Numbered from the stretch's first letter, positions 5,584 to 58,078 are shown. The stretch is 59,845 nt of DNA from Minisyncoccota bacterium (GCA_035541295.1 DATKNP010000004.1:1-59845), one strand, 5' to 3'. Notes: a model not told the origin generated them from the letters alone. Numbers and translations are program-made.

Positions 5584-6450
5584 ATGCATATGGTGCAGTG
5601 GATCGAGAATCTTAATGCTGACATTTTAGACGGCCTCATCAAAGGCTCAGCGTTGATTGCATTCATTATCATCTCGCAGGGGGTTATATGGTTCCTCAAG
5701 TTTCGGCTTCGTCGCCACTATACGCAAGTGACGAGAGAATTAGCGGATATGGATGAAGTCCAGCAGGCGTCACTCACATACTTCCGCCGTCGCCAATTCC
5801 TTGACGTAATACGTGCGTCGTTACTCCTGGTAAGTCTCCTCATTGGGGTGCTCTTCTACAACATCCAGGCGTTCAGCTTCTTGGCACTTGCCTTGGGTGC
5901 TGTGGTCATCAATCAGAAAGAAAATATTAATTCGGTCATCGCCTACTTCTTCATTCTTTCGAATTATCAGGTCGGAGATGACATTGGCACGATGATCGGC
6001 ATGATGAATAGCCTCGGCGAAATAGTCCGCATTGGACTCTTCAATACGACGCTCGCTGGCAAAGATGAAGCAGGCGAGTACAATGGCAAACGTATCTCAA
6101 TACCCAATTATCAATTCCTCTTGAATCCGGTCGAGCAACAAAACCTAAAGACTGACACCTACCGGCAGATTGTCATGGACATTCCGTATTCGCAGGAGTT
6201 GTATGCGAGGGAATTTGAAGTATTCATCAAAGATCTGCAGGCATTTCTCGATGAGCTCTTGCCGAAGCGTAACTTGCGACAGGTCGGGACATTCCGCGGA
6301 TTTGCCGGTATCCAATACAAAATAAACTTCGATTACAATACGGCCGGCTGCATCGTCGTGCGAATCACATTCATCTCACGCGCACGCGACGTGAGAGAGC
6401 GCAAAGAACGAATCGTCACATTCGTCGAGCACATGAAATCAGCCACATGA
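5584..6450 (+). CDS. Mechanosensitive (MscS-family) ion channel-like membrane protein
   Basis: 288 aa with N-terminal TM helices. MscS-like beta-domain pattern: NYQVGDDIG...GEIVRIGLFNTTLAG...GKRISIPNYQFLLNPVEQQN. Confidence 0.55.
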   Translation: MHMVQWIENLNADILDGLIKGSALIAFIIISQGVIWFLKFRLRRHYTQVTRELADMDEVQQASLTYFRRRQFLDVIRASLLLVSLLIGVLFYNIQAFSFLALALGAVVINQKENINSVIAYFFILSNYQVGDDIGTMIGMMNSLGEIVRIGLFNTTLAGKDEAGEYNGKRISIPNYQFLLNPVEQQNLKTDTYRQIVMDIPYSQELYAREFEVFIKDLQAFLDELLPKRNLRQVGTFRGFAGIQYKINFDYNTAGCIVVRITFISRARDVRERKERIVTFVEHMKSAT

Positions 6451-10273: not shown

Positions 10274-10472
10274 AGGTTCCTTGGTTCCTTCCGAAATAAA
10301 ATAGCCACTAATGTTTCTATTAGCGGGCGGTGAAAGAGCTCCGAGGAGGCCTCGTAGTCTTGCGCGCACGCTAGTCAGGGAATGTGTTCGCGAATCCAGT
10401 CAAGATTCCGTATCAATCGATCGCGGTTATCATTATGCACCTTTTTGCAGGTGCGCGCTGGATGAAAATTAC

Positions 10473-10481
10473 TGTGGATAA
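10473..10481 (-). promoter_or_regulatory. Perfect DnaA box (TTATCCACA on minus strand) in the nrdA/murD divergent spacer
   Basis: The plus strand reads TGTGGATAA at 10473-10481, 200 nt upstream of the nrdA ATG and ~150 nt upstream of the murD ATG. Confidence 0.4.
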
Positions 10482-10629
10482 CCCGACTCATACGATGGTA
10501 TCGAACGGTCTCTCAAAGTGTAGCTTTTCTAGTAATACATGTTGGAGTCAATATTATCTACGAATCAAAAATCAGAGATGTCAAACATCACCACTTCGGA
10601 AGAACCCAAATGTGGCATATAGTGGTGAG

Positions 10630-11964
10630 ATGAAAAATTTTTGTGAGCCGTTCGAAGCCAAAAAAGTAACCGTCATGGGTCTCGGGCTGCTCGGTCGTGG
10701 TGTTGGCGACGTCGAGTTTCTCGCGGCCTGTGGTGCTCGGGTACTCGTGACTGATACAAAGCGTGCGCATGAGCTCGCCGATTCTATAGAGAAGCTCAAA
10801 AAGTATCCAAACGTGTCGTTTCATCTTGGCGAACACAAGGAAGAAGACTTCACTCGATGCGATTTTATTCTCAAAGCGGCTGGAGTCCCGCTCAGCTCTC
10901 CGTTCATAGAAGCCGCACGGACAGCAGACGTGCCTGTCTACATGTCGACTGCACTTTTTGCCAACTATGCGATGCACGAGGGAGCCATGATTGTCGGTGT
11001 GACCGGCACGCGCGGCAAATCGACCGTGACGCAGATGATGTATGAAATACTAAAAACAAAAAACAAAGAAAATGTTCTCCTCGGCGGAAATGTTCGCGGC
11101 GTTTCCACACTTTCATTTTTGCCACAGGTGACGAAAGATACCATTGCGGTTCTCGAACTCGATTCATGGCAGCTGCAAGGCTTCGGCGATCTGAAAATCT
11201 CTCCGCAGATCGCGGTCTTTACCAATCTCATGCCGGATCATCAGAATTATTACAAGGATATGGATGAATATTTTGCTGACAAGGCGAATATTTTTCGATT
11301 CCAAATAGAAGGTGATGTGCTCGTATGCGGAAAGGGTATTGAAGAGAAAATAACCGCGGCAGCACCAAAGGTGCTGCCGCGCGTACCCACACCACTTCCG
11401 TCTGATTGGAAATTAAAAATCCCTGGCGAACATAACAGAGAGAATGCTGCACTTGCAGCGGAGGCACTCCGCACATTGAAAGTGTCCGAAGATGAAATTC
11501 GCGTTGGTCTCGAAAAATTCGAAGGTGTCGAGGGTCGTTTGCAATTAGCTGGTGAGGTCAATCACGTGAAAATTTATAACGACAACAATGCAACGACTCC
11601 TGAAGCAACGATCGCTGCACTCGAAGCACTTGACCCAGAAGGCCGACGAAATATCCTCCTCATCATAGGCGGTGCAGACAAAGGACTCGATATGTCTCAC
11701 TTGCAAAGAGCAATACAGATGCATTGTAAGAAAGTGTTGTTGCTTGCGGGGACAGGAACAGAAAAGATTCGCTCGTATGTTTCCGACGCAGTCTTTTTCG
11801 ATTCACTCAAATCAGCGTTTGACGCAGCACTCGCATCAGCGACTATGGACGACATCATTCTCTTCAGCCCCGCCTTCGCTTCATTCGGCATGTTCAAGAA
11901 TGAATATGAGCGGAATGATGAATTCGTGCGAATACTCACAGAAGTGTTGAAAAGAGATGTCTAA
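10630..11964 (+). CDS. murD: UDP-N-acetylmuramoylalanine--D-glutamate ligase
   Basis: The ORF-track ORF is 10384-11964. The start was moved to ATG 10630 (MKNFCEPFEAKKVTVMGLGLLGRGVGDVEFL = MurD Rossmann N-terminus). Mur ligase P-loop GVTGTRGKST. Confidence 0.9.
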   Translation: MKNFCEPFEAKKVTVMGLGLLGRGVGDVEFLAACGARVLVTDTKRAHELADSIEKLKKYPNVSFHLGEHKEEDFTRCDFILKAAGVPLSSPFIEAARTADVPVYMSTALFANYAMHEGAMIVGVTGTRGKSTVTQMMYEILKTKNKENVLLGGNVRGVSTLSFLPQVTKDTIAVLELDSWQLQGFGDLKISPQIAVFTNLMPDHQNYYKDMDEYFADKANIFRFQIEGDVLVCGKGIEEKITAAAPKVLPRVPTPLPSDWKLKIPGEHNRENAALAAEALRTLKVSEDEIRVGLEKFEGVEGRLQLAGEVNHVKIYNDNNATTPEATIAALEALDPEGRRNILLIIGGADKGLDMSHLQRAIQMHCKKVLLLAGTGTEKIRSYVSDAVFFDSLKSAFDAALASATMDDIILFSPAFASFGMFKNEYERNDEFVRILTEVLKRDV

Positions 11965-11970
11965 CAAAAA

Positions 11971-11990
11971 AGCACGTCCGAGAACGTGCT
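11971..11990 (+). terminator. Hairpin just after the murD stop (no T-run)
   Basis: agcacgt (11971-11977) / acgtgct (11984-11990), preceded by an A-run and not followed by a U-tract. Confidence 0.3.
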
Positions 11991-12196
11991 AAGTTGGGGG
12001 AATTGGATCAACCTCCTTTCGGCAACAAGAACACTTTGGAGTCTCTGGGGACTCTCGGTTCCTGTGTGGTAGGGGGATTTATATTCCAAAGATCTTCTCG
12101 GTGCCTCCTCTCAAAAGCCATTCCAATCCTATAACAAAAGGATTTTTTGGCAATGCGCACTTTGAGTATAGTGATGCACTTACGCTATTTACTGTG

Positions 12197-12202
12197 TATA
12201 GT
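12197..12202 (+). promoter_or_regulatory. -10-like TATAGT placed 7 nt before the murC ATG (leaderless-type arrangement)
   Basis: gtgTATAGTtagttttATG. The same gtgTATAGTt string recurs 6 nt before ATG 46200. A second TATAGT lies at 12167-12172. Confidence 0.3.
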
Positions 12203-12209
12203 TAGTTTT

Positions 12210-13490
12210 ATGGAAGTCCCGAAAAACATTTACATGACCGGCATCGGCGGGATCGGGATGTCGGCGCTCGCGCAAATGCTGCATGCGCAAGGCAAAACGG
12301 TTGCTGGCTCCGATCGCGAAGAATCACCGACGACAGAACTCTTAACCTCGAAGGGGATTCACGTCGATATCGATCAAGCTGCAGGAAATATTCCGGAGGG
12401 CACGGGACTTTTGATTTATAGCGATGCTGTTCCCGAATCGAATCCAGAACGCATGCGCGCGAAAGAACTTGGCATCGAGGAACTGTCGTACTTCGAAGCG
12501 CTCGGCGAAGTCTCATATGGAATGAAGACGATCGCGGTGACCGGAACCCACGGAAAGACCACGACGACCGGCATGCTCACAAAGATTTTACAGACGGCAG
12601 GGAAAGAGCCGACGGCTATCATCGGCTCGATCGTGCGTGATTTTGAATCAAACTTCTTAGCTGGTTCGGATGATCTACTTATCGTTGAGGCCTGCGAGTA
12701 CCGCGATCATGTCTTGAAACTCTCACCACAGATTCTCGTCATTACCAATATCGAATGGGATCACACTGATTATTTCCCAACACTCGATGCGCTCGTCGAG
12801 ACGTTTCGCACGGCGGCGCACAAGGTTCCACACGATGGGTACATTGTGACGAACCCCGCAGGATCCAACATCGCTCGTGTCCTTGCAGGTGCACAAGCGC
12901 ACATCATTGATTACACGCAAGAGGAAGTGCCGACGCTTTCACAAATCGGCGAATTTAATCGCGAAAACGCGCGGGCGGCCGCTGCGGCCGCCCGCAGCGT
13001 ATTTCCTGATATACAACAGGGCACCATCGATCGCGCACTCCTCGACTTCAAAGGTTCGTGGCGGCGCTTCGAATACAAAGGTGAGACGCCATTGGGTGCG
13101 CTCGTGTACGATGATTATGCACATCATCCGACGGCGATCGAAAAGACGCTCGAAGCGGTGCGCGCGAAATTTCCCGACAAGAAAATTGTGGTCGCATTCC
13201 ACGCACACCTCTATTCCCGCACGAAATCATTCTTGAAAGAATTCGCTCGAGCGCTGGCCAAAGCTGATCGTTCCATCATCGCGCCGATTTATGCAGCGCG
13301 TGAGCCGAACGATCCGAGTGTGTCCAACCAGATCATCGCTGAAGAAATCCATGCAGTCGGCGGCCTCTCGCTCGCGCTCGATTCATTCGACGAGATTCGT
13401 GACGAATTATTGAAGCTCGATTCCTCGCATCTCATCATCACGATGGGTGCGGGGGATATTTATAAGGTGGCTGATCAGATCGCGGATTGA
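12210..13490 (+). CDS. murC: UDP-N-acetylmuramate--L-alanine ligase
   Basis: The ORF-track ORF is 12147-13490. The start was moved to ATG 12210 (MEVPKNIYMTGIGGIGMSALAQML). P-loop GTHGKTTTT. DYAHHP motif. Confidence 0.9.
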   Translation: MEVPKNIYMTGIGGIGMSALAQMLHAQGKTVAGSDREESPTTELLTSKGIHVDIDQAAGNIPEGTGLLIYSDAVPESNPERMRAKELGIEELSYFEALGEVSYGMKTIAVTGTHGKTTTTGMLTKILQTAGKEPTAIIGSIVRDFESNFLAGSDDLLIVEACEYRDHVLKLSPQILVITNIEWDHTDYFPTLDALVETFRTAAHKVPHDGYIVTNPAGSNIARVLAGAQAHIIDYTQEEVPTLSQIGEFNRENARAAAAAARSVFPDIQQGTIDRALLDFKGSWRRFEYKGETPLGALVYDDYAHHPTAIEKTLEAVRAKFPDKKIVVAFHAHLYSRTKSFLKEFARALAKADRSIIAPIYAAREPNDPSVSNQIIAEEIHAVGGLSLALDSFDEIRDELLKLDSSHLIITMGAGDIYKVADQIAD

Positions 13491-13577: not shown

Positions 13578-14102
13578 ATGCGCTATAGTGTTCGAACGCA
13601 TATGTCGCGGAAGCAGAACAATTATGCCTTCATCGATGGCCAAAATACGCACAAGGGTGTGCAGAGTTTGGGTTGGAAAATCGATTGGTTTCGTTTTCGG
13701 ATATATTTGCGAGAAAAGTATCACGTAGAGGTAGCATATGTGTTTATTGGATTTATGGTACAGCACAATGCGCTCTATGAGCATTTGCAAAAAGCTGGCT
13801 TTATCTTGAAGTTCAAGCCAGTGTTGCCTGATAGGAATGGTAAACCAAAAGGAAACGTCGATGCTGACCTTGTTCTGCAGGCGATGTTGGATTACAGCTC
13901 GTATGATCAAGCGGTGTTGGTATCGAGCGATGGTGACTTTTATTCACTTGTGGAGCATTGGTATTCGACCGACAAGCTAAAGATGGTGCTTAGTCCGTAT
14001 ATCAAGACATGTTCGACATTGTTGAAAAAGACCGCAAAAGAAAAGATAATTTATCTTGACACAGTACGCCCCAAGATTAGTCAAAAGAAAAGCACCGCTT
14101 AA
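13578..14102 (+). CDS. NYN-domain (LabA/DUF88-like) predicted RNase
   Basis: 174 aa. YAFIDGQN..., KGNVDADLVLQAM, and AVLVSSDGDFYSLV fit the NYN/PIN-like acidic motif pattern. Visibly more A+T-rich than its neighbours. Alternative start at ATG 13602. Confidence 0.7.
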   Translation: MRYSVRTHMSRKQNNYAFIDGQNTHKGVQSLGWKIDWFRFRIYLREKYHVEVAYVFIGFMVQHNALYEHLQKAGFILKFKPVLPDRNGKPKGNVDADLVLQAMLDYSSYDQAVLVSSDGDFYSLVEHWYSTDKLKMVLSPYIKTCSTLLKKTAKEKIIYLDTVRPKISQKKSTA

Positions 14103-14922: not shown

Positions 14923-14984
14923 ACTGTGTTCGGTTTTCCGGAACGGGGCTTTCATTTATTTGTCAGTGCGGTAGACTTCTCGCT

Positions 14985-15260
14985 ATGACTTTAGATGCCC
15001 TTATCATGCTCGTGGGAGCGCTTGTTGCGGTGATGCCACTCCTCGGCTTCCCCGTCGACATGAAGATGTGGATATTTTTTATATTGGGAGTCATCGTTGT
15101 TGGGCTCGGTATTGCGGTACGTCGTCGTGGAGCGCGACAGCAGCACGCACCGAAGCGCAAGGGAGAGTTCGTCGAGAGTACACCGTCGAATGCTATGCAC
15201 CACGATCCTGAAAATCAATTTGATCATGTGCGCACGTCAGCTAAATCGCGTATAGAATAA
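14985..15260 (+). CDS. Small two-TM membrane protein, hypothetical
   Basis: 91 aa. Two hydrophobic helices (LIMLVGALVAVMPLLGF, MWIFFILGVIVVGLGIAV), then a basic tail. Confidence 0.45.
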   Translation: MTLDALIMLVGALVAVMPLLGFPVDMKMWIFFILGVIVVGLGIAVRRRGARQQHAPKRKGEFVESTPSNAMHHDPENQFDHVRTSAKSRIE

Positions 15261-15266
15261 AAATCT

Positions 15267-15536
15267 ATGGATGCAGAAACAAAAGAGATTCTCGAAGTTG
15301 TTAATTCCATCAAGGATAAGATGGTAACGAAAGACGAGTTACAGGAAGGACTCGATGGTCTGCGTACGGAATTGAAGGCAGATATCAAGGAAGTTGGTGA
15401 ACGAGTTCTCGCTGTCGAAAACCGACTCAGCGCCATGGATAATCGCATCGATGATGAAGCCGCGCGTCGAAAGGATCTTGAGAATCGGGTCCGCAACGTC
15501 CTACCGAAGCTTTCACCTGCGCCGGAGCGGGTTTGA
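15267..15536 (+). CDS. Small coiled-coil protein, hypothetical
   Basis: 89 aa with heptad-like charged sequence. Lies 6 nt after the previous stop. A paralogue-like ORF is at 51492-51767. Confidence 0.45.
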   Translation: MDAETKEILEVVNSIKDKMVTKDELQEGLDGLRTELKADIKEVGERVLAVENRLSAMDNRIDDEAARRKDLENRVRNVLPKLSPAPERV

Positions 15537-15564
15537 AGTCAAACTTACTGATATACTAGAGAGT

Positions 15565-17409
15565 ATGCATCCCGATGCACGCGACGATGATCGCCGCATC
15601 ACGTATTTTGCGGCGACACACACGCGCGGTAAACGCGAGATGTTTGGTATACGTGCCATCGACCGCGGTAAGCACGTCTATGTGATCGGCAAGACTGGTA
15701 TGGGCAAGTCGACCATGCTCGAGAACATGGCGATACAAGACATTCAGCACGGCGAAGGCATCGCCTTCATCGACCCGCACGGCTCGACTGCCGAGAAGCT
15801 CCTCGACTTCGTCCCGCATGACCGCATCAACGACGTCGTCTACTTCGCACCCTTCGATGTTGATCATCCACTCGGATTCAATGTGATGGAGGACGTTGGC
15901 TTCGAACATCGCCACCTCGTGGTCTCTGGCCTCATGGGAGCCTTCAAGCGCATCTGGGTCGATGCGTGGAGCGCGCGCATGGAATACATATTGCAAAACA
16001 CACTCTTAGCACTCCTCGAATATCCGGGCTCGACCTTAATCGACGTCAACCGAATGCTTACCAACAAAACGTTCCGTACTGCCGTCGTCGATAAAGTGAG
16101 CGACCCCATCGTAAAGGCGTTTTGGACTGAAGAATTTGCCGCGTTCACCGATACCTATACGCGCGAAGCGACACCCGCCATACAAAACAAAATCGGTGCG
16201 TTCGTTTCCAACCCGCTCATCCGCAACATCATCGGCCAGCCGACCTCCTCGTTCGATCTACGCACAATAATGGACGAGAAGAAAATATTCATCGTCAATC
16301 TTTCCAAAGGTCGCATGGGAGAGAGCAATGCGAGTCTCTTGGGATCGATGCTTACCGTGAAGATCTATCTCGCCGCGATGAGTCGCGCGGAAGAGCCCGC
16401 GAGCCGCATGGCGAAGCTCCCGCGCTGTTTCTTCTATGTCGATGAATTCCAATCGATGATGAATGAATCCTTCGCTGATATTCTTTCGGAGTCGCGCAAA
16501 TACAAACTCGCGCTCACACTTGCCAACCAGTACATCGAGCAGATGGACGAAGAAGTCCGCGATGCAGTCTTCGGCAACGTGGGGACACTCATCACCTTCC
16601 GCGTCGGTCCCTTCGATGCTGAGACCTTGAAGACGGTCTTCGAACCGACCTTCGAAGCAGAAGACATGGTGGGGCTTGGCATTGGACAGATTTATTTGAC
16701 CCTCATGATCGACGGTGTCGGTTCGGCACCCTTCTCAGCTGAGACAATTCCACCCATCGAGAAGCCGCATATTTCGTATCGCGAAGATGTCGTCACACAC
16801 TCGCGTGAGACCTATGGTCGCTCACGTGCCGAGGTCGAAGCAGTGATCGCAGCCAAGCAAAAAGAATTCATCCCACCGCCAGTACTCTCGAAGACCCAGA
16901 TACGTAAAATAGAAGGCAGTACCTATGGCTCGCGTCCTCGGGAAGTCGCCCCCTCGACACCGCCGATCGCGGTCACGCACGCCGCACGTACGACAAACAC
17001 ACCGATACCACCAGTGCCATCAAGCACCGATGCCTCACGGCCGACTGACCGATCGAGTGCTTCGGAAGTAGAGCAGCGTTCGGCATTACGCGCGGCGATC
17101 GAGAGCGCACGCAAACCCACTGCTCCCACACCGACTCCAGTTCGCTCGCCAGCAGATCTCTTGCGTGTGCGGATGCAGCAATCGTTTTCATCAGGAAATA
17201 ATCATCATGCACCGCAGTCTTCATCAAACTCATTTCGATCGAATGATTTCCGCACGGCGCGTCCGGCCAGTCCGCCGCGTGGGCGCGAGCAGCCGACGCC
17301 AGTGAGCGTCGATGAACCTAAAGAAGTGGGCACGGGAGAAGTCTCATCAGAAATCCTCAAACGTGTTATTAGTGGACAAGGGGGTCATGAAGAAGATTTG
17401 GATACATAA
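15565..17409 (+). CDS. VirD4/TraD/TrwB-like (type IV coupling protein-like) P-loop NTPase, no TM segment, disordered C-terminal tail
   Basis: The ORF-track ORF is 15394-17409. The start was moved to ATG 15565. Walker A VIGKTGMGKST, FIDPHG, Walker B-like CFFYVDEFQ, SRKYKLALTLANQY. The last ~150 aa are P/S/T/A-rich. Confidence 0.7.
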   Translation: MHPDARDDDRRITYFAATHTRGKREMFGIRAIDRGKHVYVIGKTGMGKSTMLENMAIQDIQHGEGIAFIDPHGSTAEKLLDFVPHDRINDVVYFAPFDVDHPLGFNVMEDVGFEHRHLVVSGLMGAFKRIWVDAWSARMEYILQNTLLALLEYPGSTLIDVNRMLTNKTFRTAVVDKVSDPIVKAFWTEEFAAFTDTYTREATPAIQNKIGAFVSNPLIRNIIGQPTSSFDLRTIMDEKKIFIVNLSKGRMGESNASLLGSMLTVKIYLAAMSRAEEPASRMAKLPRCFFYVDEFQSMMNESFADILSESRKYKLALTLANQYIEQMDEEVRDAVFGNVGTLITFRVGPFDAETLKTVFEPTFEAEDMVGLGIGQIYLTLMIDGVGSAPFSAETIPPIEKPHISYREDVVTHSRETYGRSRAEVEAVIAAKQKEFIPPPVLSKTQIRKIEGSTYGSRPREVAPSTPPIAVTHAARTTNTPIPPVPSSTDASRPTDRSSASEVEQRSALRAAIESARKPTAPTPTPVRSPADLLRVRMQQSFSSGNNHHAPQSSSNSFRSNDFRTARPASPPRGREQPTPVSVDEPKEVGTGEVSSEILKRVISGQGGHEEDLDT

Positions 17410-18193
17410 CATCATACTACTGCTCTTGCTAGTGCCGCATCTTGTGGCAGCACAGGTCGTGATAAGCGAGGTCATGTACGATCCACTCGGCGCCGATACT
17501 GGTCATGAGTGGCTAGAAGTCTACAACGCAAGCACCTCGTCGGTACCACTCACCACATGGAAACTCTACGAAGGTGATGCCAATCACAATATCATCGCTG
17601 CATCGGGTGATGCGACGTTGGCACCGAGTACGTATGGGGTCATCGCATCGAACGCGACGAAATTCTCGGCTGATTATCCGGACTTTGCCGGCACACTCTT
17701 CCACAGCGCGGTCTCGCTCGACAATGCAGGCGAGTCGATAACACTGCGCGACAAGTCACTTACCGATATCGACACTGTCTCATACGACAGCAGCGAAGGG
17801 GCGCTTGGTGATGGTAATAGTTTGCAGCGTTCGCCGGGAGATATGGGATCATTTACTGCACACACACCGACACCCGGTGCTTCGATCTCAACCACTACGA
17901 TAACGCCGAAGAGCAAACCTGTATCTCCGGTGAAGCCTCCCAAACCAAAAAAGTCAACGAGTGCGAAAATTAGACCTGCATCATCGAACACAGACATTCG
18001 CGCGAGCAACGATGCGGGCAATATGTCAGTCGTCGCACCGCAAGCGGCTGCGGTAGCAACACGTAGCACGAGCTCCTATTGGTTCTTCGCGCTCGCTGCT
18101 GTCATATTCCTCTCGATCGCTGCTCTTGCCGTCTCACGGCATGTCAAAAAGTCCGAATGGGACATTGTTGAAGAAAGTCCCGAAGACGTGTAA
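17387..18193 (+). CDS. Secreted lamin-tail-domain (LTD) protein with C-terminal TM anchor
   Basis: The start was moved to ATG 17387 (MKKIWIHNIILLLLLVPHLVAAQ signal peptide), which overlaps the ATPase stop by 23 nt. LTD pattern VVISEVMYDP...HEWLEVYN...WKL, a PK-rich linker, and TM YWFFALAAVIFLSIAALAV. Confidence 0.7.
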   Translation: MKKIWIHNIILLLLLVPHLVAAQVVISEVMYDPLGADTGHEWLEVYNASTSSVPLTTWKLYEGDANHNIIAASGDATLAPSTYGVIASNATKFSADYPDFAGTLFHSAVSLDNAGESITLRDKSLTDIDTVSYDSSEGALGDGNSLQRSPGDMGSFTAHTPTPGASISTTTITPKSKPVSPVKPPKPKKSTSAKIRPASSNTDIRASNDAGNMSVVAPQAAAVATRSTSSYWFFALAAVIFLSIAALAVSRHVKKSEWDIVEESPEDV

Positions 18194-19078: not shown

Positions 19079-19121
19079 GACAGCCTTTTCTTTTGGCGCT
19101 TTTGGGCTAGGATGAGGCGCA

Positions 19122-38202: not shown

Positions 38203-40107
38203 ATGAAAAGTCTTTTGTTGCTCTATGAATCGAAACAAGTTTCCATGCTCCCTAGCTTGCGAGCGCTTGTACCGATCGAAGAACAGAAAAATTTGACGAT
38301 CATTGCACTCGGTGTAGATATCGAGCTCGCACTTCGTGAACAGAACATTCTCTTTGAAACCGGACGTGGTCTTCGGACGACCAGTCATGCCGATGCTTTG
38401 ATGAAAACGGAAATGATCGGACGCAGCATACTTTCTGATCCCAGTCTTTCTTTTCTCTTGTATAGAGGGGTACCGCTCGCACATGTCCTCATGCCAGTTT
38501 TGCAAGACTACCTACTTTACCCACTCTATTTTATTGATATCCTCACCACGCTGATAGAAAGGCATCCAGAATGCGAACGGATCATAGTTCCTCCCTCGAC
38601 CATCACCGTCCTTGAAACCGCAGGTATCATGGCACTACTTGAAACTTCCGCTGCAATGGATGCTGCCCGTTTGATCGGAAAGAAATATAACATCGAGATC
38701 CTCATGGTACCGACTGTTGAGTCACGGACGTTCTCGCCGCAAAACTATCTCGTTAACGCCCGCTTTTATTTCACGCGGCGTGTATTTGGATGGGTACTGT
38801 CCTTATTGAATACATTCGTGACCACATTTCGTCGACCGCAACACATACGCGTTCTCGTTACCGATTATTGGAAACATCTGTCGCCCCTTATGAAAAGGCT
38901 TCCGGAGAGCGAGCTCATGCTCCTCGATAGGAGCGAGGTACTTAATGCGGGCTTCCCGGCAATTTGGCGAAATCGAGTACAGTTCATACACATAGAAGAC
39001 TTCCTCTCGCGTCAAATAAAAAAAGAAGCCTCAGTCCAAGCGGTGCGATTACTAGCAGAATGGCAAGACGTCGCTCATTCAAATATAGCGATCCAACAAG
39101 CAGTATTCCGTGGCCACGCGCTAGATAGTCTGCTTCGTACTGCAATCCACCATATGTTCATGGTGGGAGGGAGGCGCTCAATGCGAGTTATCGAAGGTTC
39201 TTATGCTCTCTACGAAAGAATGCGGCCGGATGTCGTTTTGGTGCGCGCAAGTCTTTCACTGCAAATACATTTCCCGATCCTTTGCTATGTTGCAAAGGTG
39301 TTCGGTATTCCATCCATAGAAATTCAGCACGGCCTGCTGTATCTGGGACCCGGCACATTCATCAACAATCCCGCGCCTGAATACATTGCTACTTACGGAC
39401 CACTCACGAGTGCCGGATTCAAGCGATTTGGTTATACGAATGAACAGTTACTCAACACTGGTTCGCCACGATTCGACCAATACGAGATCTTACGGAAATC
39501 GGTGCGAGATTCGTCCAGTTCGACTAAGCTATTTACCATTGCCTGCATCGTACCGGCCGTACTCCCGCAATCATGGTCTGATACGTATGAGGTTGAGGAT
39601 TATTTCAGACACATCGCCGCGGCTGTCGTTGATATTCCCAATATCCAGATAATCTTCAAGTTGCGACCAGGCGCAGAATACGAAGCGTTTTATCAACGTA
39701 TCATCACGGAGCAGATGCGTGACGTTAATTTCAAAATAGCGCAGTACGAATCACTCATCGACGTTTTTGCAGAGGCGGATGTGGTCGCAACGATCTATTC
39801 GACGACAACCCTTGAGGGTCTCATTTCTGGACGACCAGTCGTCTACAACGGGACGCTGGAAATGCACGCGTGGCTTGGTCGCGAGTTCGAAGAATACGAA
39901 CAGGCCGGAGCATTAATGATGGCGACGACGCCGCAGCGATTGAAAGAAATTTTCGAAATTCTAGCGCACGACCCACAACGAGGGGCGGAATTAGTCGCCA
40001 ATGCCGACGCATTTATGAAGAAGAATTATTCTTTCGATGGAGGTGCGGCACAAAGGCTCGCTGACGATATTCGACGCTTGAAAGCCCGAAAGGATTCCGA
40101 AGAATGA
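38203..40107 (+). CDS. Large hypothetical protein; the C-terminal half is GT-B-like (TagB/TagF-like or other sugar/phospho-transferase)
   Basis: 634 aa. IEIQHGLL...GSPRFDQY...ADVVATIYSTTTLEGLISGRPVV resembles GT-B/Glyphos_transf organisation. The N-terminal ~300 aa are unrecognised. Confidence 0.35.
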   Translation: MKSLLLLYESKQVSMLPSLRALVPIEEQKNLTIIALGVDIELALREQNILFETGRGLRTTSHADALMKTEMIGRSILSDPSLSFLLYRGVPLAHVLMPVLQDYLLYPLYFIDILTTLIERHPECERIIVPPSTITVLETAGIMALLETSAAMDAARLIGKKYNIEILMVPTVESRTFSPQNYLVNARFYFTRRVFGWVLSLLNTFVTTFRRPQHIRVLVTDYWKHLSPLMKRLPESELMLLDRSEVLNAGFPAIWRNRVQFIHIEDFLSRQIKKEASVQAVRLLAEWQDVAHSNIAIQQAVFRGHALDSLLRTAIHHMFMVGGRRSMRVIEGSYALYERMRPDVVLVRASLSLQIHFPILCYVAKVFGIPSIEIQHGLLYLGPGTFINNPAPEYIATYGPLTSAGFKRFGYTNEQLLNTGSPRFDQYEILRKSVRDSSSSTKLFTIACIVPAVLPQSWSDTYEVEDYFRHIAAAVVDIPNIQIIFKLRPGAEYEAFYQRIITEQMRDVNFKIAQYESLIDVFAEADVVATIYSTTTLEGLISGRPVVYNGTLEMHAWLGREFEEYEQAGALMMATTPQRLKEIFEILAHDPQRGAELVANADAFMKKNYSFDGGAAQRLADDIRRLKARKDSEE

Positions 40108-48972: not shown

Positions 48973-48981
48973 TGGTACAAT
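48973..48981 (+). promoter_or_regulatory. Extended -10 (TGgTACAAT) 7 nt upstream of ATG 48989, a leaderless-type arrangement
   Basis: cgTGgTACAATcccacccATG. Confidence 0.35.
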
Positions 48982-52348: not shown

Positions 52349-52463
52349 GAGCGATGGCGGGACACAGGATATGAAACTAGGGCTTGCCTTGAAGTTTTAA
52401 TACCTTTTATATACTCGTAGACGGACCGTCGCAAAAAAGAACGTTTTGGGGTAGGATGACGCG

Positions 52464-55210: not shown

Positions 55211-56662
55211 ATGACAGATGAGTATGAGACTACAATAGGCCTTGAGGTGCATGCAGAGCTGAAGACCAAGACAAAGATGTTTTGCTCGTCTAAGAACGAT
55301 CCAGATGAGACGAGGCCGAATATGAATATCTGTCCGGTTTGTCTTGCACACCCTGGGACGCTGCCGGTGCCCAACTGCGAGGCACTAGAGCTTGTTTTGA
55401 AGGTTGGTGCCTCTCTCGGCAGCACACTGGCCGATTACACGGAATTTGACCGTAAGAATTACTTTTATCCAGACCTTCCCAAGGGCTATCAAATAAGTCA
55501 ATTCGAATTTCCATTAGTCGCCGGCGGAAGCCTTAATGGCGTTGAGATCACACGCATACATCTCGAAGAAGACACCGCAAGCTCAATACACGATGACAAT
55601 ACTGGTACGACCCTTATCGATTACAACAGGTCAGGCGTGCCTTTGATGGAGCTTGTGACTGAGCCCGTCATGCACAGCGCCCAAGAGGCGGGGGACTTTG
55701 CGCGAGAGCTGCAGGTTCTGCTACGGACGCTTGGTGTCAGCGAGGCCAATATGGAGAAGGGTCAGATGCGCGTAGAGGCCAATGTTTCAGTTGCCAAGAA
55801 GGGGACTCGGAGTGCTGCATACGTCGAGATCAAGAATCTCAACTCCTTCAGAGCAATGGAGCGTGCTGTCGCCTATGAGATTAAGCGTCAGCAGGGAATG
55901 CTTGATCGTGGCGAGATCCTTACCAAGCAGACGCTCGGATGGGATGAGGCAAAGCAGGAGACGTTCCCACAGCGAAGCAAAGAAGGCAGTGCAGACTACC
56001 GTTACTTCCCAGACCCCGATATTCCATCACTTCGTCTTTCCGAGATACCATATTACAAGCCATCTCGGATACAATCGAGTTTGCCAGAGCTACCAAACCA
56101 GAAGCGCGTACGATACGAAAGTCTCGGTATTAATCCAGAAGATGCTCAAATGTACGTGAATCAAAAAATACTCGGCTCATTCTTTGAGGAGGTTATCGCG
56201 AACGAGACTGATAGCACGAAGATCAAACTTGCCTCCAACTATATCGCCAATGATCTGGTGAAAATAATCCGAGATTCTTCCAGCCGAGATACGGAATCAA
56301 AGGAAATAATTGAAATATCGGTACCAATTTCGGCAGATTATTTCAGATCAATAATCGATCTCATTGCGAGCAATAAAATATCTTCCCGTTCAGGCAAAGA
56401 TCTCTTGAGGCTTACGATCGAGGAGAACCGACAACCTGAAGAGCTGGCGAAAGAGAGAGGCCTTATGATGCAAAACTCGGCTTTCGACCTCGACGCATTG
56501 ATTGCAAAGATAGTAGCTGATAATCCGAAGGTTGTGGGAGAATACAAATCTGGTAAAGATTCGGTCCTTGAATTCCTTGTTGGGCAGGGCATGAAGGCAT
56601 TGCGAGGATCAGGTGACCCACAAGCCTTGCGCAAAGCTTTTCTTAGCAATCTGAAGCATTAG
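55211..56662 (+). CDS. gatB: Asp-tRNA(Asn)/Glu-tRNA(Gln) amidotransferase subunit B
   Basis: 483 aa. IGLEVHAELKTKTKMFC, CPVCLAHPGTLP, and a C-terminal YqeY-like tail. No gatA or gatC adjacent. Confidence 0.95.
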   Translation: MTDEYETTIGLEVHAELKTKTKMFCSSKNDPDETRPNMNICPVCLAHPGTLPVPNCEALELVLKVGASLGSTLADYTEFDRKNYFYPDLPKGYQISQFEFPLVAGGSLNGVEITRIHLEEDTASSIHDDNTGTTLIDYNRSGVPLMELVTEPVMHSAQEAGDFARELQVLLRTLGVSEANMEKGQMRVEANVSVAKKGTRSAAYVEIKNLNSFRAMERAVAYEIKRQQGMLDRGEILTKQTLGWDEAKQETFPQRSKEGSADYRYFPDPDIPSLRLSEIPYYKPSRIQSSLPELPNQKRVRYESLGINPEDAQMYVNQKILGSFFEEVIANETDSTKIKLASNYIANDLVKIIRDSSSRDTESKEIIEISVPISADYFRSIIDLIASNKISSRSGKDLLRLTIEENRQPEELAKERGLMMQNSAFDLDALIAKIVADNPKVVGEYKSGKDSVLEFLVGQGMKALRGSGDPQALRKAFLSNLKH

Positions 56663-56756
56663 AATCAATTCCCGAATCTTCTGACCTTAAGGACGTTCTT
56701 ATTGTGCACCATTGAGGCGAGCACACTCGAACAGTATCGAGTATACTCTACCTTAT

Positions 56757-57704
56757 ATGGTTGAAGAGATACCAGTAGGCGATAGTACATATGTCTCGTC
56801 TAAGCGAGCATCAGAAATAAGCGCATATGCACAAGATTACATCGGCCAGCTTGCTCGGGCGGGTCACATTGCGGCGAAAAGAGTCGGAGGACTCTGGTAT
56901 ATCGACATGAATTCTTTGGAAGCTTACAGATCAAATCCGATCGCAAACCAAAGAGACCATAGGTCTAAAGAAAATGGCTATCAAGAGGACCAAGATACAG
57001 AAGCACTCGTATCATTCGATGGAAAAAACTATATCTCGGCTAGTCGAGCATCGAAATTGACAGGTTATAACCAAGATTATGTCGGCCAACTAGCACGATC
57101 GGGCAAATTACTCGCAAAGCAAGTCGGCAGCCGTTGGTACGTGGAACGAGATGGTTTACTGGCTCATAAAAAAGAAAAAGACTCCTTATTAGCAGCAGTG
57201 CAGGCGGATGCCGTCGGGATTGGGCTATATTCGCCTACACCAGTTCTTACTGATGATCATCTTGACATTCAGGAAATGCCGTTACTCCAATACTCCCCCG
57301 AATCAAGAGACTTAAGACCGATTTTGCGTTCTAAAGATACTCACGATATAGAAATAAAGAGACAATCTAACGAATATAGCCAGAAGGGACAAAATTCAGA
57401 GACATTTGAAGATATCGGAAGCAAGAAAAGTATTAAAATAGGATCACAAGACGACAAAAAAACACCTCCAGAGAACTTCAAAAACAATACGAAGAAAGAA
57501 TCTCAAAAGAATCTCATTTATCTCGCTTTTGGGGGATTCCTGTTGTTATTAATGGGATTGGTTCTCGTTTTAATTTTAAAATTGAAGACTCCTTCGGAAA
57601 AAAATTCGAATATAGTAATTATCGCAAGCGAGAATGCATTAAATCAGCTGACAAGATCCTTTGAAGACACATTTTCACCTGAACTCCAATATAAAAGAGA
57701 TTGA
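56757..57704 (+). CDS. Membrane protein with two tandem N-terminal HTH-like (excisionase/MerR-type) domains, a low-complexity linker and a C-proximal TM helix
   Basis: The start was moved to ATG 56757. Repeats YVSSKRASEISAYAQDYIGQLARAGHIAAKRVGGLWYI and YISASRASKLTGYNQDYVGQLARSGKLLAKQVGSRWYV. TM LIYLAFGGFLLLLMGLVLVLIL. Confidence 0.55.
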   Translation: MVEEIPVGDSTYVSSKRASEISAYAQDYIGQLARAGHIAAKRVGGLWYIDMNSLEAYRSNPIANQRDHRSKENGYQEDQDTEALVSFDGKNYISASRASKLTGYNQDYVGQLARSGKLLAKQVGSRWYVERDGLLAHKKEKDSLLAAVQADAVGIGLYSPTPVLTDDHLDIQEMPLLQYSPESRDLRPILRSKDTHDIEIKRQSNEYSQKGQNSETFEDIGSKKSIKIGSQDDKKTPPENFKNNTKKESQKNLIYLAFGGFLLLLMGLVLVLILKLKTPSEKNSNIVIIASENALNQLTRSFEDTFSPELQYKRD

Positions 57705-57863
57705 TTTACTCGCCATGAAAGAATATCTAATAAAATATAGTAATTTCGTTTATACGGACGAGTAAATAAATGTAGAATAGGATTGATAATTATTACTCGT
57801 GTAGACGAGATCCTATCTCCACGAAGCATAGATGCACTATAAAGTAGGGCATCTCGAGTAATA
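57704..57863. promoter_or_regulatory. Array of two 9-bp inverted-repeat pairs sharing the half-site TTACTCG/CGAGTAA
   Basis: ATTTACTCG 57704-57712 / CGAGTAAAT 57759-57767, and TATTACTCG 57791-57799 / CGAGTAATA 57855-57863. A related palindrome, GAGTATACTC, lies at 56739-56748. Confidence 0.5.
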
Positions 57864-58078
57864 TCTTTTCGAGACCCATTCACAATAGGATAAGTTTCAG
57901 TTTAAATTGAACTCAAAATTTTAAAAATCTCTATTATTTCTCGACCCACATCATTCCGAGTCGTAATAAAAAACAAATTAAGTGTAAGAAATTCTTATCC
58001 CCAGATTTCCAAGAAGATAAAATTATATAAACGAATTATCTAGTAATATATTAATGATATCGTGTTGCCGACCTGCTC

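Follow-up and report, generated by a model that had tools for sequence, protein, structure and literature searches.

The stretch of DNA considered here (the window; GCA_035541295.1 DATKNP010000004.1:1-59845) comprises 59,845 nucleotides (nt) from a Minisyncoccota bacterium, with the encoded proteins having their nearest named homologues in Candidatus Kaiserbacteria, within the Parcubacteria of the candidate phyla radiation (CPR). Between positions 14,985 and 18,193 four open reading frames (ORFs) are tightly packed on the plus strand. They encode, in order, a small protein of 91 amino acids (aa) with two hydrophobic helices, presumed to be transmembrane (TM; the 2-TM gene, 14985..15260), an 89-aa protein with only weak coiled-coil-type matches (15267..15536), a soluble 614-aa ATPase resembling type IV coupling proteins (T4CPs; 15565..17409) and a 268-aa type-I membrane protein carrying a lamin-tail domain (LTD; 17387..18193). 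The 2-TM and coiled-coil genes are separated by 6 nt and the coiled-coil and ATPase genes by 28 nt, the ATPase and LTD genes overlap by 23 nt, and codon-usage scores favoured the annotated frame in all four ORFs, the coiled-coil ORF included. An earlier reading of the sequence (the original prediction) had described this packing with the same coordinates and gaps, and had proposed that the four genes form an undescribed device for DNA uptake or export. Comparison with related genomes upholds the packing and points to a smaller unit, in which the ATPase and the LTD protein are conserved partners and the ATPase is possibly the motor half of a coupling protein that was split from its membrane half.

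The ATPase comprises a nucleotide-binding domain (NBD) and an all-alpha domain (aa 1 to ~440) followed by a tail of ~170 aa. The motifs by which it had been likened to VirD4 and TraD were all found (GKTGMGKST, FIDPHG, FFYVDEFQ and KYKLALTLANQY), and the likeness held with hidden Markov models (HMMs), three Pfam coupling-protein models matching the protein: TrwB_AAD_bind (31.6 bits, cut-off 20.5), T4SS-DNA_transf (26.0 bits, cut-off 20.1) and TraG-D_C (22.0 bits, exactly at its cut-off of 22). Among 123 diverse homologues the residues G42, G45, G47, K48 and D293/E294 of the P-loop NBD were invariant or nearly so. Homologues keep the start codon found at 15565 and no hydrophobic segment lies 5′ of the P-loop, so that the ATPase has no N-terminal TM segment, as had been suggested. 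The C-terminal tail (aa ~440–614) is of low confidence and predicted to be disordered, again as suggested, with short conserved motifs within it. More than 8,000 homologues sharing sequence words with the ATPase were found, the best 120 being 64–90% identical, while an exhaustive search returned 21,093 clusters at 50% identity with E ≤ 1e-3 and 5,610 with E ≤ 1e-30. Across 27 homologues residues 1 to ~400 hardly vary, with the core ~85% identical as against ~65% for MurC encoded in the same loci and with RsmI also less conserved.

An AlphaFold2 (AF2) model of the ATPase built from the 123 diverse sequences reached a pLDDT of 93.5 and a pTM of 0.89, an alignment of the 27 close homologues having given a pLDDT of only 48. 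The model predicts a protein that folds like TrwB, with an all-alpha domain (a helical insert at aa 113–237) inserted in the NBD. TrwB was the best match in the Protein Data Bank (PDB) by sequence and also came first in a fold search with the model (E = 1e-13, TM-score 0.56–0.64), followed by HerA, Cag-beta, DotL, DndH-C and VirB4. The Walker A/B NBD with its inserted all-alpha domain is shared with TrwB, VirD4 and TraD (PF10412, PF02534; PDB 1e9r, 1gki), there is a TraG-D_C region scoring at its cut-off, and the disordered C-terminal tail has a counterpart in F TraD. Unlike these proteins the window ATPase has no N-terminal TM domain, no relaxase or VirB genes were recognised within 60 kb of it among the 34 window ORFs scanned, and its gene is chromosomal and vertically inherited, with the high core identity extending across a family-level clade. 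HerA and VirB4 (PDB 4d2i, 4ag6) share the superfamily fold with E-values of 1e-12 to 5e-9, ranking below TrwB.

The relationship of the ATPase to its neighbours was studied in 174 related loci (cited by L number), made up of 80 genome loci with close ATPase homologues, 80 metagenome loci retrieved with a 59%-identical relative and 14 exact look-ups, and dereplicated where stated at 95% identity; one of them, L081 (P0213), is a low-coverage contig with many frameshifts and was uninformative. Of the 67 Kaiserbacteria-type loci with enough flanking sequence, 65 have an LTD orthologue after the ATPase, and a member of the LTD family follows the ATPase in 74 of 113 dereplicated loci, usually at most 20 nt away or overlapping. 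The usual gene order across the 174 loci is murD-(murI)-murC-rsmI-TM2-[X]-ATPase-LTD-epimerase-glycosyltransferase, in which TM2 is the 2-TM gene and X stands for one to three of a DUF4015 glycosidase-like gene, a gene for an unknown secreted protein, an L,D-transpeptidase or S11 carboxypeptidase gene and a ParE toxin gene with its antitoxin. In L089, L090 and their relatives all of the flanking genes differ (ligA, gatCA, L21, recR and dnaB upstream; DUF5667, a sigma factor, ychF, L20/L35 and IF3 downstream) and there is no 2-TM gene, yet the ATPase is followed after 19 nt by a gene for a protein with a signal peptide, an LTD and a C-terminal TM segment. The ATPase-LTD pair is thus a conserved unit that is retained without flanking synteny, which bears out the LTD protein as the linked partner of the ATPase.

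The expression signals of the pair are in keeping with this. A -10-like box (TATACT, 15552..15557, plus strand) lies 7 nt upstream of the ATPase ATG, and 44 of 51 related loci keep the arrangement TATA(C/A)T, 6–7 nt, ATG at the start of the ATPase gene; such a hexamer would be expected by chance in a 20-nt interval in ~2% of cases. This geometry is promoter-like and resembles that of a -10 box serving a leaderless mRNA. The LTD start is preceded at a distance of 2 nt by a Shine-Dalgarno-like GGGGG run (17380..17384, plus strand) lying inside the 3′ end of the ATPase gene, which with the 23-nt overlap fits translational coupling of the LTD protein to the ATPase. A scan of the region for sigma-70 promoters and terminators gave results at chance level, and when RNA-seq support was sought the runs holding the sequence were of DNA only, from wetland metagenomes. 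Elsewhere in the window, -10-like hexamers (TACACT, TAGACT, TAGAAT, TATACT, TACAAT, TAGGAT) occur 6–8 nt before the ATG of several genes that are first in their operons and have no Shine-Dalgarno sequence, the sites being 2823-2834 (pilM, minus strand), 14972-14977, 15253-15258, 15552-15557, ~19108-19113, ~48976-48981 and ~52452-52457. This pattern suggests that leaderless mRNAs may be common in this organism.

The LTD protein has a signal peptide (aa 1–23), an LTD matching PF00932 (aa 22–133; 59.2 bits, cut-off 34.3), a Pro/Lys-rich linker, a TM segment (aa ~231–250) and a C-terminal tail, RHVKKSEWDIVEESPEDV, predicted to be cytoplasmic. The layout of signal peptide, LTD (VVISEVMYDP...EWLEVYN), Pro/Lys stalk and C-terminal anchor read from the sequence at the outset was thereby confirmed. 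The tail contains the motif EWDIVEE (18155..18175, plus strand), the tail peptide of the window protein being KKSEWDIVEESPEDV. All LTD partners close with a TM helix, a basic cluster and a conserved motif on the cytoplasmic face, the consensus in the Kaiserbacteria-type clade being (K/R)(K/R)xEWDI(V/I)EE. The tryptophan is invariant and E, I and E are at least 90% conserved, whereas the LTD ectodomains span 250–700 aa and share no more than 30–60% identity. In 61 of 81 sources there was exactly one tail of the EWDI(V/I)EE type per locus; the gene that follows the ATPase carried it every time, and no other gene of the window or the loci did. Variant tails occur in other clades (YSIELIE, GDIELIE, DFTIIEE, DDxPWV). 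A profile search of a large protein database with a 53-aa alignment of the tail gave a single match, the E-value scale being too strict for so short a motif. The LTD protein has no LPXTG or PEP motif and no NCBIfam CTERM match that would indicate processing by a sortase or exosortase, and unlike sorting signals the conserved motif sits past the basic cluster, where it would face the cytoplasm. When a surface protein keeps such a tail conserved, an equally conserved partner inside the cell is implied, and the co-transcribed ATPase would be the obvious candidate.

These observations bear on whether the adjacency is simply inherited gene order, with the ATPase being a cytoplasmic HerA/FtsK-like housekeeping DNA translocase (in segregation or repair) and its neighbours unrelated. 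The appearance of HerA among the top fold matches, the lack of a TM segment, the very high conservation typical of core functions and the synteny of the whole block (murC-rsmI-TM2-(envelope genes)-ATPase-LTD-epimerase-glycosyltransferase) would all suit such a role. HerA itself has an N-terminal barrel domain before its ATPase, which was not evident in the secondary structure of the window ATPase model, the two not having been compared directly, and the family descends from membrane-anchored T4CPs and not from HerA (see below). Equally, the overlapping or closely spaced start and stop codons and the Shine-Dalgarno-like run tie the LTD gene to the ATPase, and the conserved tail needs a cytoplasmic partner. 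Because the pair survives when both flanks change and the tail is conserved, a housekeeping translocase appears improbable.

The history of the family was indicated by proteins in which the ATPase is not alone. Among the top 150 family representatives, 38 are proteins of 900–1,100 aa in which an N-terminal TM helix and the ~350-aa PF26449 domain (DUF8128, a domain of unknown function) precede the ATPase. In other Parcubacteria (L082/L083, L091, L174) a separate gene encoding the TM segment and DUF8128 ends 3–42 nt before a short ATPase gene. The window ATPase is 43–53% identical to the DUF8128-fused forms and is nested within them in a neighbour-joining tree, in which the fused forms are basal, the split forms come next and all of the ATPases in a TM2/LTD context form one derived clade. 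In L173 a gene with sigma-70 region 4 and HARE-HTH domains is followed by the DUF8128 gene with no ATPase beside it, indicating that the DUF8128 and ATPase halves can be unlinked. VirB3-VirB4 fusions have a comparable layout of TM segment, N-terminal domain and ATPase, which is offered as a lead only. The DUF8128 profile had zero matches among PDB sequences and in NCBIfam, and no mention of the domain was found in the literature. In six loci (L082, L083, L085, L091, L173, L174) the gene immediately preceding that of DUF8128, often itself preceded by secD-secF, encodes a protein of ~350 aa that combines an N-terminal sigma-70 region 4 with a C-terminal HARE-HTH domain like that of the RNA polymerase delta subunit and forms with DUF8128 a conserved CPR pair; this sigma-70 region 4/HARE-HTH gene is absent from the window.

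The DUF8128-ATPase fusion is also widespread outside the CPR, being found on 405 plasmids of Streptomyces, Bacillus, Staphylococcus, Clostridium, haloarchaea and Sulfolobus. On a Bacillus subtilis plasmid (FUA2231, WP_345805471.1) and on Bacillus methanolicus pBM69 (WP_003349917.1) it heads an operon continuing with a replication-relaxation protein, conjugal transfer proteins and a VirB4-like ATPase, while on Natrinema plasmids the form is split, in one case adjoining a pilin gene and a type IV secretion system (T4SS) gene. The position of these proteins in plasmid conjugation operons indicates that the family is a coupling-protein class of monoderm and archaeal conjugation systems, of which the window ATPase would be the relocated soluble half. 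That the core is homologous is evident from the match of the ATPase HMM built from the loci to the Bacillus plasmid protein (E = 1e-37) and to gp27.4 of phage SPO1 (E = 6.5e-20), and from that of phrog_5156 to the window ATPase (E = 4e-58). The CPR relatives share DUF8128 with the plasmid class, as a fusion or as an upstream gene, whereas the window protein is without it, and the plasmid forms stand with relaxase-like and VirB4-like genes where the window form stands with cell-wall and glycan genes and an LTD partner. The Bacillus phages SPO1 (gp27.4; L176) and G (gp156) encode a full DUF8128 plus T4CP-like ATPase (phrog_5156), the presence of which in lytic phages is unexplained.

The two upstream genes behave differently from the pair. 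Of 109 dereplicated loci, 92 (84%, a few of them without rsmI) have a 2-TM gene in the 5 kb preceding the ATPase gene, and 13 (12%) have it directly adjoining the ATPase gene; in ~88% of relatives one to three cell-envelope genes stand between the two. The 2-TM gene is absent from the clade in which the ATPase has a dnaB context; it is best described as an rsmI neighbour whose membership of the ATPase unit is not supported. A homologue of the coiled-coil protein was found in none of the 174 loci, by tblastn on the 80 genome loci and inspection of the small ORFs upstream of the ATPase in all 174, the small ORFs considered as candidates being rejected as unrelated and several of them being ParE toxins. 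In the closest relatives (L001 and L002) there are only ~56 nt where the coiled-coil ORF sits, so that the ORF, real-looking by codon usage, has the appearance of a lineage-specific insertion. The slot just 5′ of the ATPase holds ParE toxin/antitoxin pairs or unrelated small ORFs in L018, L027, L032, L043 and L064, and the coiled-coil gene of the window occupies the same insert-collecting slot.

The tight same-strand packing in this genome and the 2-TM gene within 5 kb in most loci favour a four-gene minimal device for DNA uptake or export in which the 2-TM and coiled-coil proteins anchor the motor at the membrane. With the coiled-coil gene confined to the window, the 2-TM gene seldom adjacent, and the 2-TM, coiled-coil and ATPase genes each having a -10-like box of their own (TAGACT for the 2-TM gene, 7 nt 5′ of its ATG), the four genes are not co-conserved. 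On this ground, which the original prediction had itself named as decisive, the four-gene module fails, its role as a transfer device is essentially refuted and left very improbable, and the 2-TM and coiled-coil genes appear from their distribution to be bystanders outside the conserved unit. Better candidates for anchoring the ATPase are the TM+DUF8128 protein and the TM segment and tail of the LTD protein. The idea of small membrane proteins serving a soluble motor would resemble the archaeal Ced system for DNA import, in which small TM proteins act with a TM-less VirB4/HerA-like ATPase. Unlike in Ced, no CedA-like polytopic protein is encoded here and the small genes are not co-conserved with the ATPase, which matched the NCBIfam CedD model weakly (E = 1e-4) and in the P-loop region only.

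The reading tentatively preferred, at somewhat less than even confidence, takes the ATPase for the motor half of a split coupling protein, kept at the membrane by the LTD tail, by a DUF8128 protein whose gene lies elsewhere or by both, and still acting in macromolecule transfer, probably with the dispersed T4SS of Patescibacteria. The ancestor would have been a coupling protein of the monoderm/archaeal class with a TM segment, DUF8128 and ATPase, the gene for which came apart in Parcubacteria, leaving the ATPase and the TM+DUF8128 part as separate genes. Within the clade containing Kaiserbacteria the ATPase gene would then have moved into a block of cell-envelope genes, where its own leaderless-type promoter would drive the ATPase and the surface LTD protein together. 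The ATPase would assemble at the membrane as a TrwB-like hexamer, recruited by the conserved acidic-aromatic tail (EWDIxEE) on the LTD side, by an inferred DUF8128 membrane protein encoded elsewhere in this genome, or by the two together, and the hexamer would power the transfer of a macromolecule, most likely through the dispersed T4SS. The comparisons above show the homology and fold, the history of splitting and fusion, the operon signals and the conservation of both pair and tail; the hexamer, the docking of the tail, the DUF8128 partner in this genome and the substrate belong to the inferred part.

A number of observations weigh against this reading. HMM and tblastn searches returned no DUF8128 gene from the 60-kb window or from the ±8 kb covered in each of 80 Kaiserbacteria-type loci, the TM-scores to TrwB are no higher than 0.56–0.64 at ~15% identity, and contact between the tail and the ATPase is purely conjectural. 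Several clades have no LTD gene and carry a glycosyltransferase gene directly after the ATPase instead, so that the ATPase-LTD partnership is not universal. No recognisable T4SS gene lies within ±5–8 kb of the ATPase in any CPR locus, the neighbours in the 174 loci being envelope, Sec, sigma-like and housekeeping genes only. The original prediction had likewise seen no T4SS genes nearby, which holds for VirB4, VirB6 and relaxase in a Pfam scan of 34 window ORFs (~16 others of at least 120 aa lying outside the scan) and for the 174 loci in so far as their neighbours were read as genes, VirB4, VirB6 and relaxase profiles not being applied there. Epibiotic growth of Ca. Southlakia requires the T4SS but not the t4cp homologue, and T4CP homologues (96% of genomes) are more widespread in Patescibacteria than VirB4 (80%), according to the survey by Quinonero-Coronel et al. 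(2025; PMC12102498). A coupling-protein homologue that is non-essential and more widespread than VirB4 favours exaptation over the preferred reading.

If exapted, the ATPase hexamer would dock on the EWDIxEE tail of the LTD protein as part of an envelope machine independent of any T4SS. Such a machine could bring in DNA or nucleoprotein captured by the LTD, or its task could be to pull out or remodel the LTD protein. In its favour count the ability of T4CPs to read signals at the C-terminus of a substrate, that of VirB4-type ATPases to dislocate membrane pilins, the persistence of the pair through broken synteny, the conservation of the cytoplasmic tail and the identity of the ATPase core (~85% as against ~65% for MurC). 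Set against these, the operon encodes no channel protein, several clades that keep the ATPase have no LTD gene and DNA binding by this LTD is supposition only. A link to DNA uptake through ComEC was suggested by L174, where a ComEC gene split into Competence and Lactamase_B parts (10427-12728) lies two genes downstream of the DUF8128-type ATPase with efp between, and was rejected as not general, L174 being the sole ComEC-adjacent case among the 174 ATPases; tblastn with the L174 ComEC gave zero matches in the window or the other 173 loci. ComEC is moreover dispensable in Southlakia according to a 2025 review (PMC12857230). The numerical excess of T4CP homologues over VirB4 and the non-essential homologue in an organism whose T4SS is essential speak for exaptation (PMC12102498), which taken overall is unlikely, if the least unlikely of the alternatives. 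Its strongest form, a two-component envelope machine of Parcubacteria in which a T4CP-derived motor freed from its membrane domain and from the T4SS is coupled to an LTD protein by the EWDIxEE docking motif, is doubtful to the same degree; if true, such a machine may for example capture and import nucleic acid in organisms unable to make nucleotides.

A role in anti-phage defence was also considered, as a mad8-like or HerA-like ATPase, on the strength of a PADLOC mad8 match to the ATPase (E = 6e-17) and of weak matches to HerA models. The mad8 (MADS) score on the ATPase core exceeds those of the Pfam T4CP models, which suggests that mad8 represents this branch of ATPases; published work on mad8 was uninformative. 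No other mad or defence genes lie nearby and no MADS, Sir2 or nuclease partners were seen among the neighbours in the 174 loci, while PADLOC gave weak or generic matches at most for the 2-TM, coiled-coil and LTD proteins, a DUF8128 protein and the sigma-70 region 4/HARE-HTH protein. The ATPase gene is inherited vertically, is nearly universal and keeps its syntenic place in a block of cell-envelope genes, whereas defence genes are typically patchy. With its partner genes not found the defence reading was rejected and is scarcely credible.

That Patescibacteria possess orphan T4CP homologues is already known. Quinonero-Coronel et al. (2025; PMC12102498) counted 5,713 VirD4-like homologues, spread over 2,918 (96%) of the 3,035 Patescibacteria genomes, just 148 of the 5,713 being near virB4, with VirB4 itself present in 2,417 genomes (80%), and the authors keep open the exaptation of these homologues. 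The passages of that paper that were searched make no mention of a TM-less or split architecture, of DUF8128, of an LTD partner with its tail motif or of the leaderless promoter. The claim that the system was undescribed therefore stands, as far as the papers searched go, for the split from DUF8128, the partnership with the LTD tail and the leaderless operon, and does not stand for the orphan coupling-protein homologues themselves.

The wider gene content of the window places the pair between cell-wall and surface-glycan genes. At its start the window has the 3′ end of a bacterial 16S rRNA gene and tRNA-Ile (1-1491), followed on the opposite strand by pilM, ~12 kb upstream of the ATPase region, with no 23S rRNA gene there, so that the rRNA operon is apparently unlinked. 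According to the Pfam scan of 34 ORFs, ribonucleotide reductase and peptidoglycan genes (MurA-like, MurD, MurC) lie upstream of the pair and a surface-glycan cluster of ~30 kb followed by secA and gatB lies downstream. An NYN-domain (RNase-like) gene (13578-14102) is situated between murC and rsmI, overlapping the long TTG-started rsmI ORF; a similar gene was present in only 1 of 80 related loci, at another position, and it looks like a lineage-specific insertion. The glycan cluster (18206-51343, ~33 kb) is large for a small CPR genome and includes many GT4 glycosyltransferases, epimerases/dehydratases, a DegT aminotransferase, NeuB and C-methyltransferases as well as an ABC exporter and a Wzy_C/TPR protein resembling O-antigen ligases. 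Two ORFs gave no Pfam match at E ≤ 1e-3 to 1e-4, one inside the glycan cluster (38203-40107, 634 aa) and one at 5584-6450 (288 aa). Around an HTH_17 (excisionase-like) gene at 56712-57704 the GC content falls to 0.405 (56001-58000) as against ~0.50 elsewhere, and this stretch may be the edge of an integrated element.

Patescibacteria carry about two T4CP copies per genome, mostly unlinked to a T4SS, and their role is an acknowledged question (PMC12102498). The present analysis gives structure to this question, tracing the orphan proteins to a coupling protein of monoderm conjugation systems made up of a TM segment, DUF8128 and the ATPase, whose gene was split and whose motor half, in one large clade, was relocated and gained a surface LTD partner with a conserved tail. 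DUF8128 itself gains a context, and is present besides on hundreds of plasmids and in two Bacillus phages, SPO1 and G. The interactions that would follow from this history, between the ATPase and the tail peptide and between the ATPase and DUF8128, are testable hypotheses.

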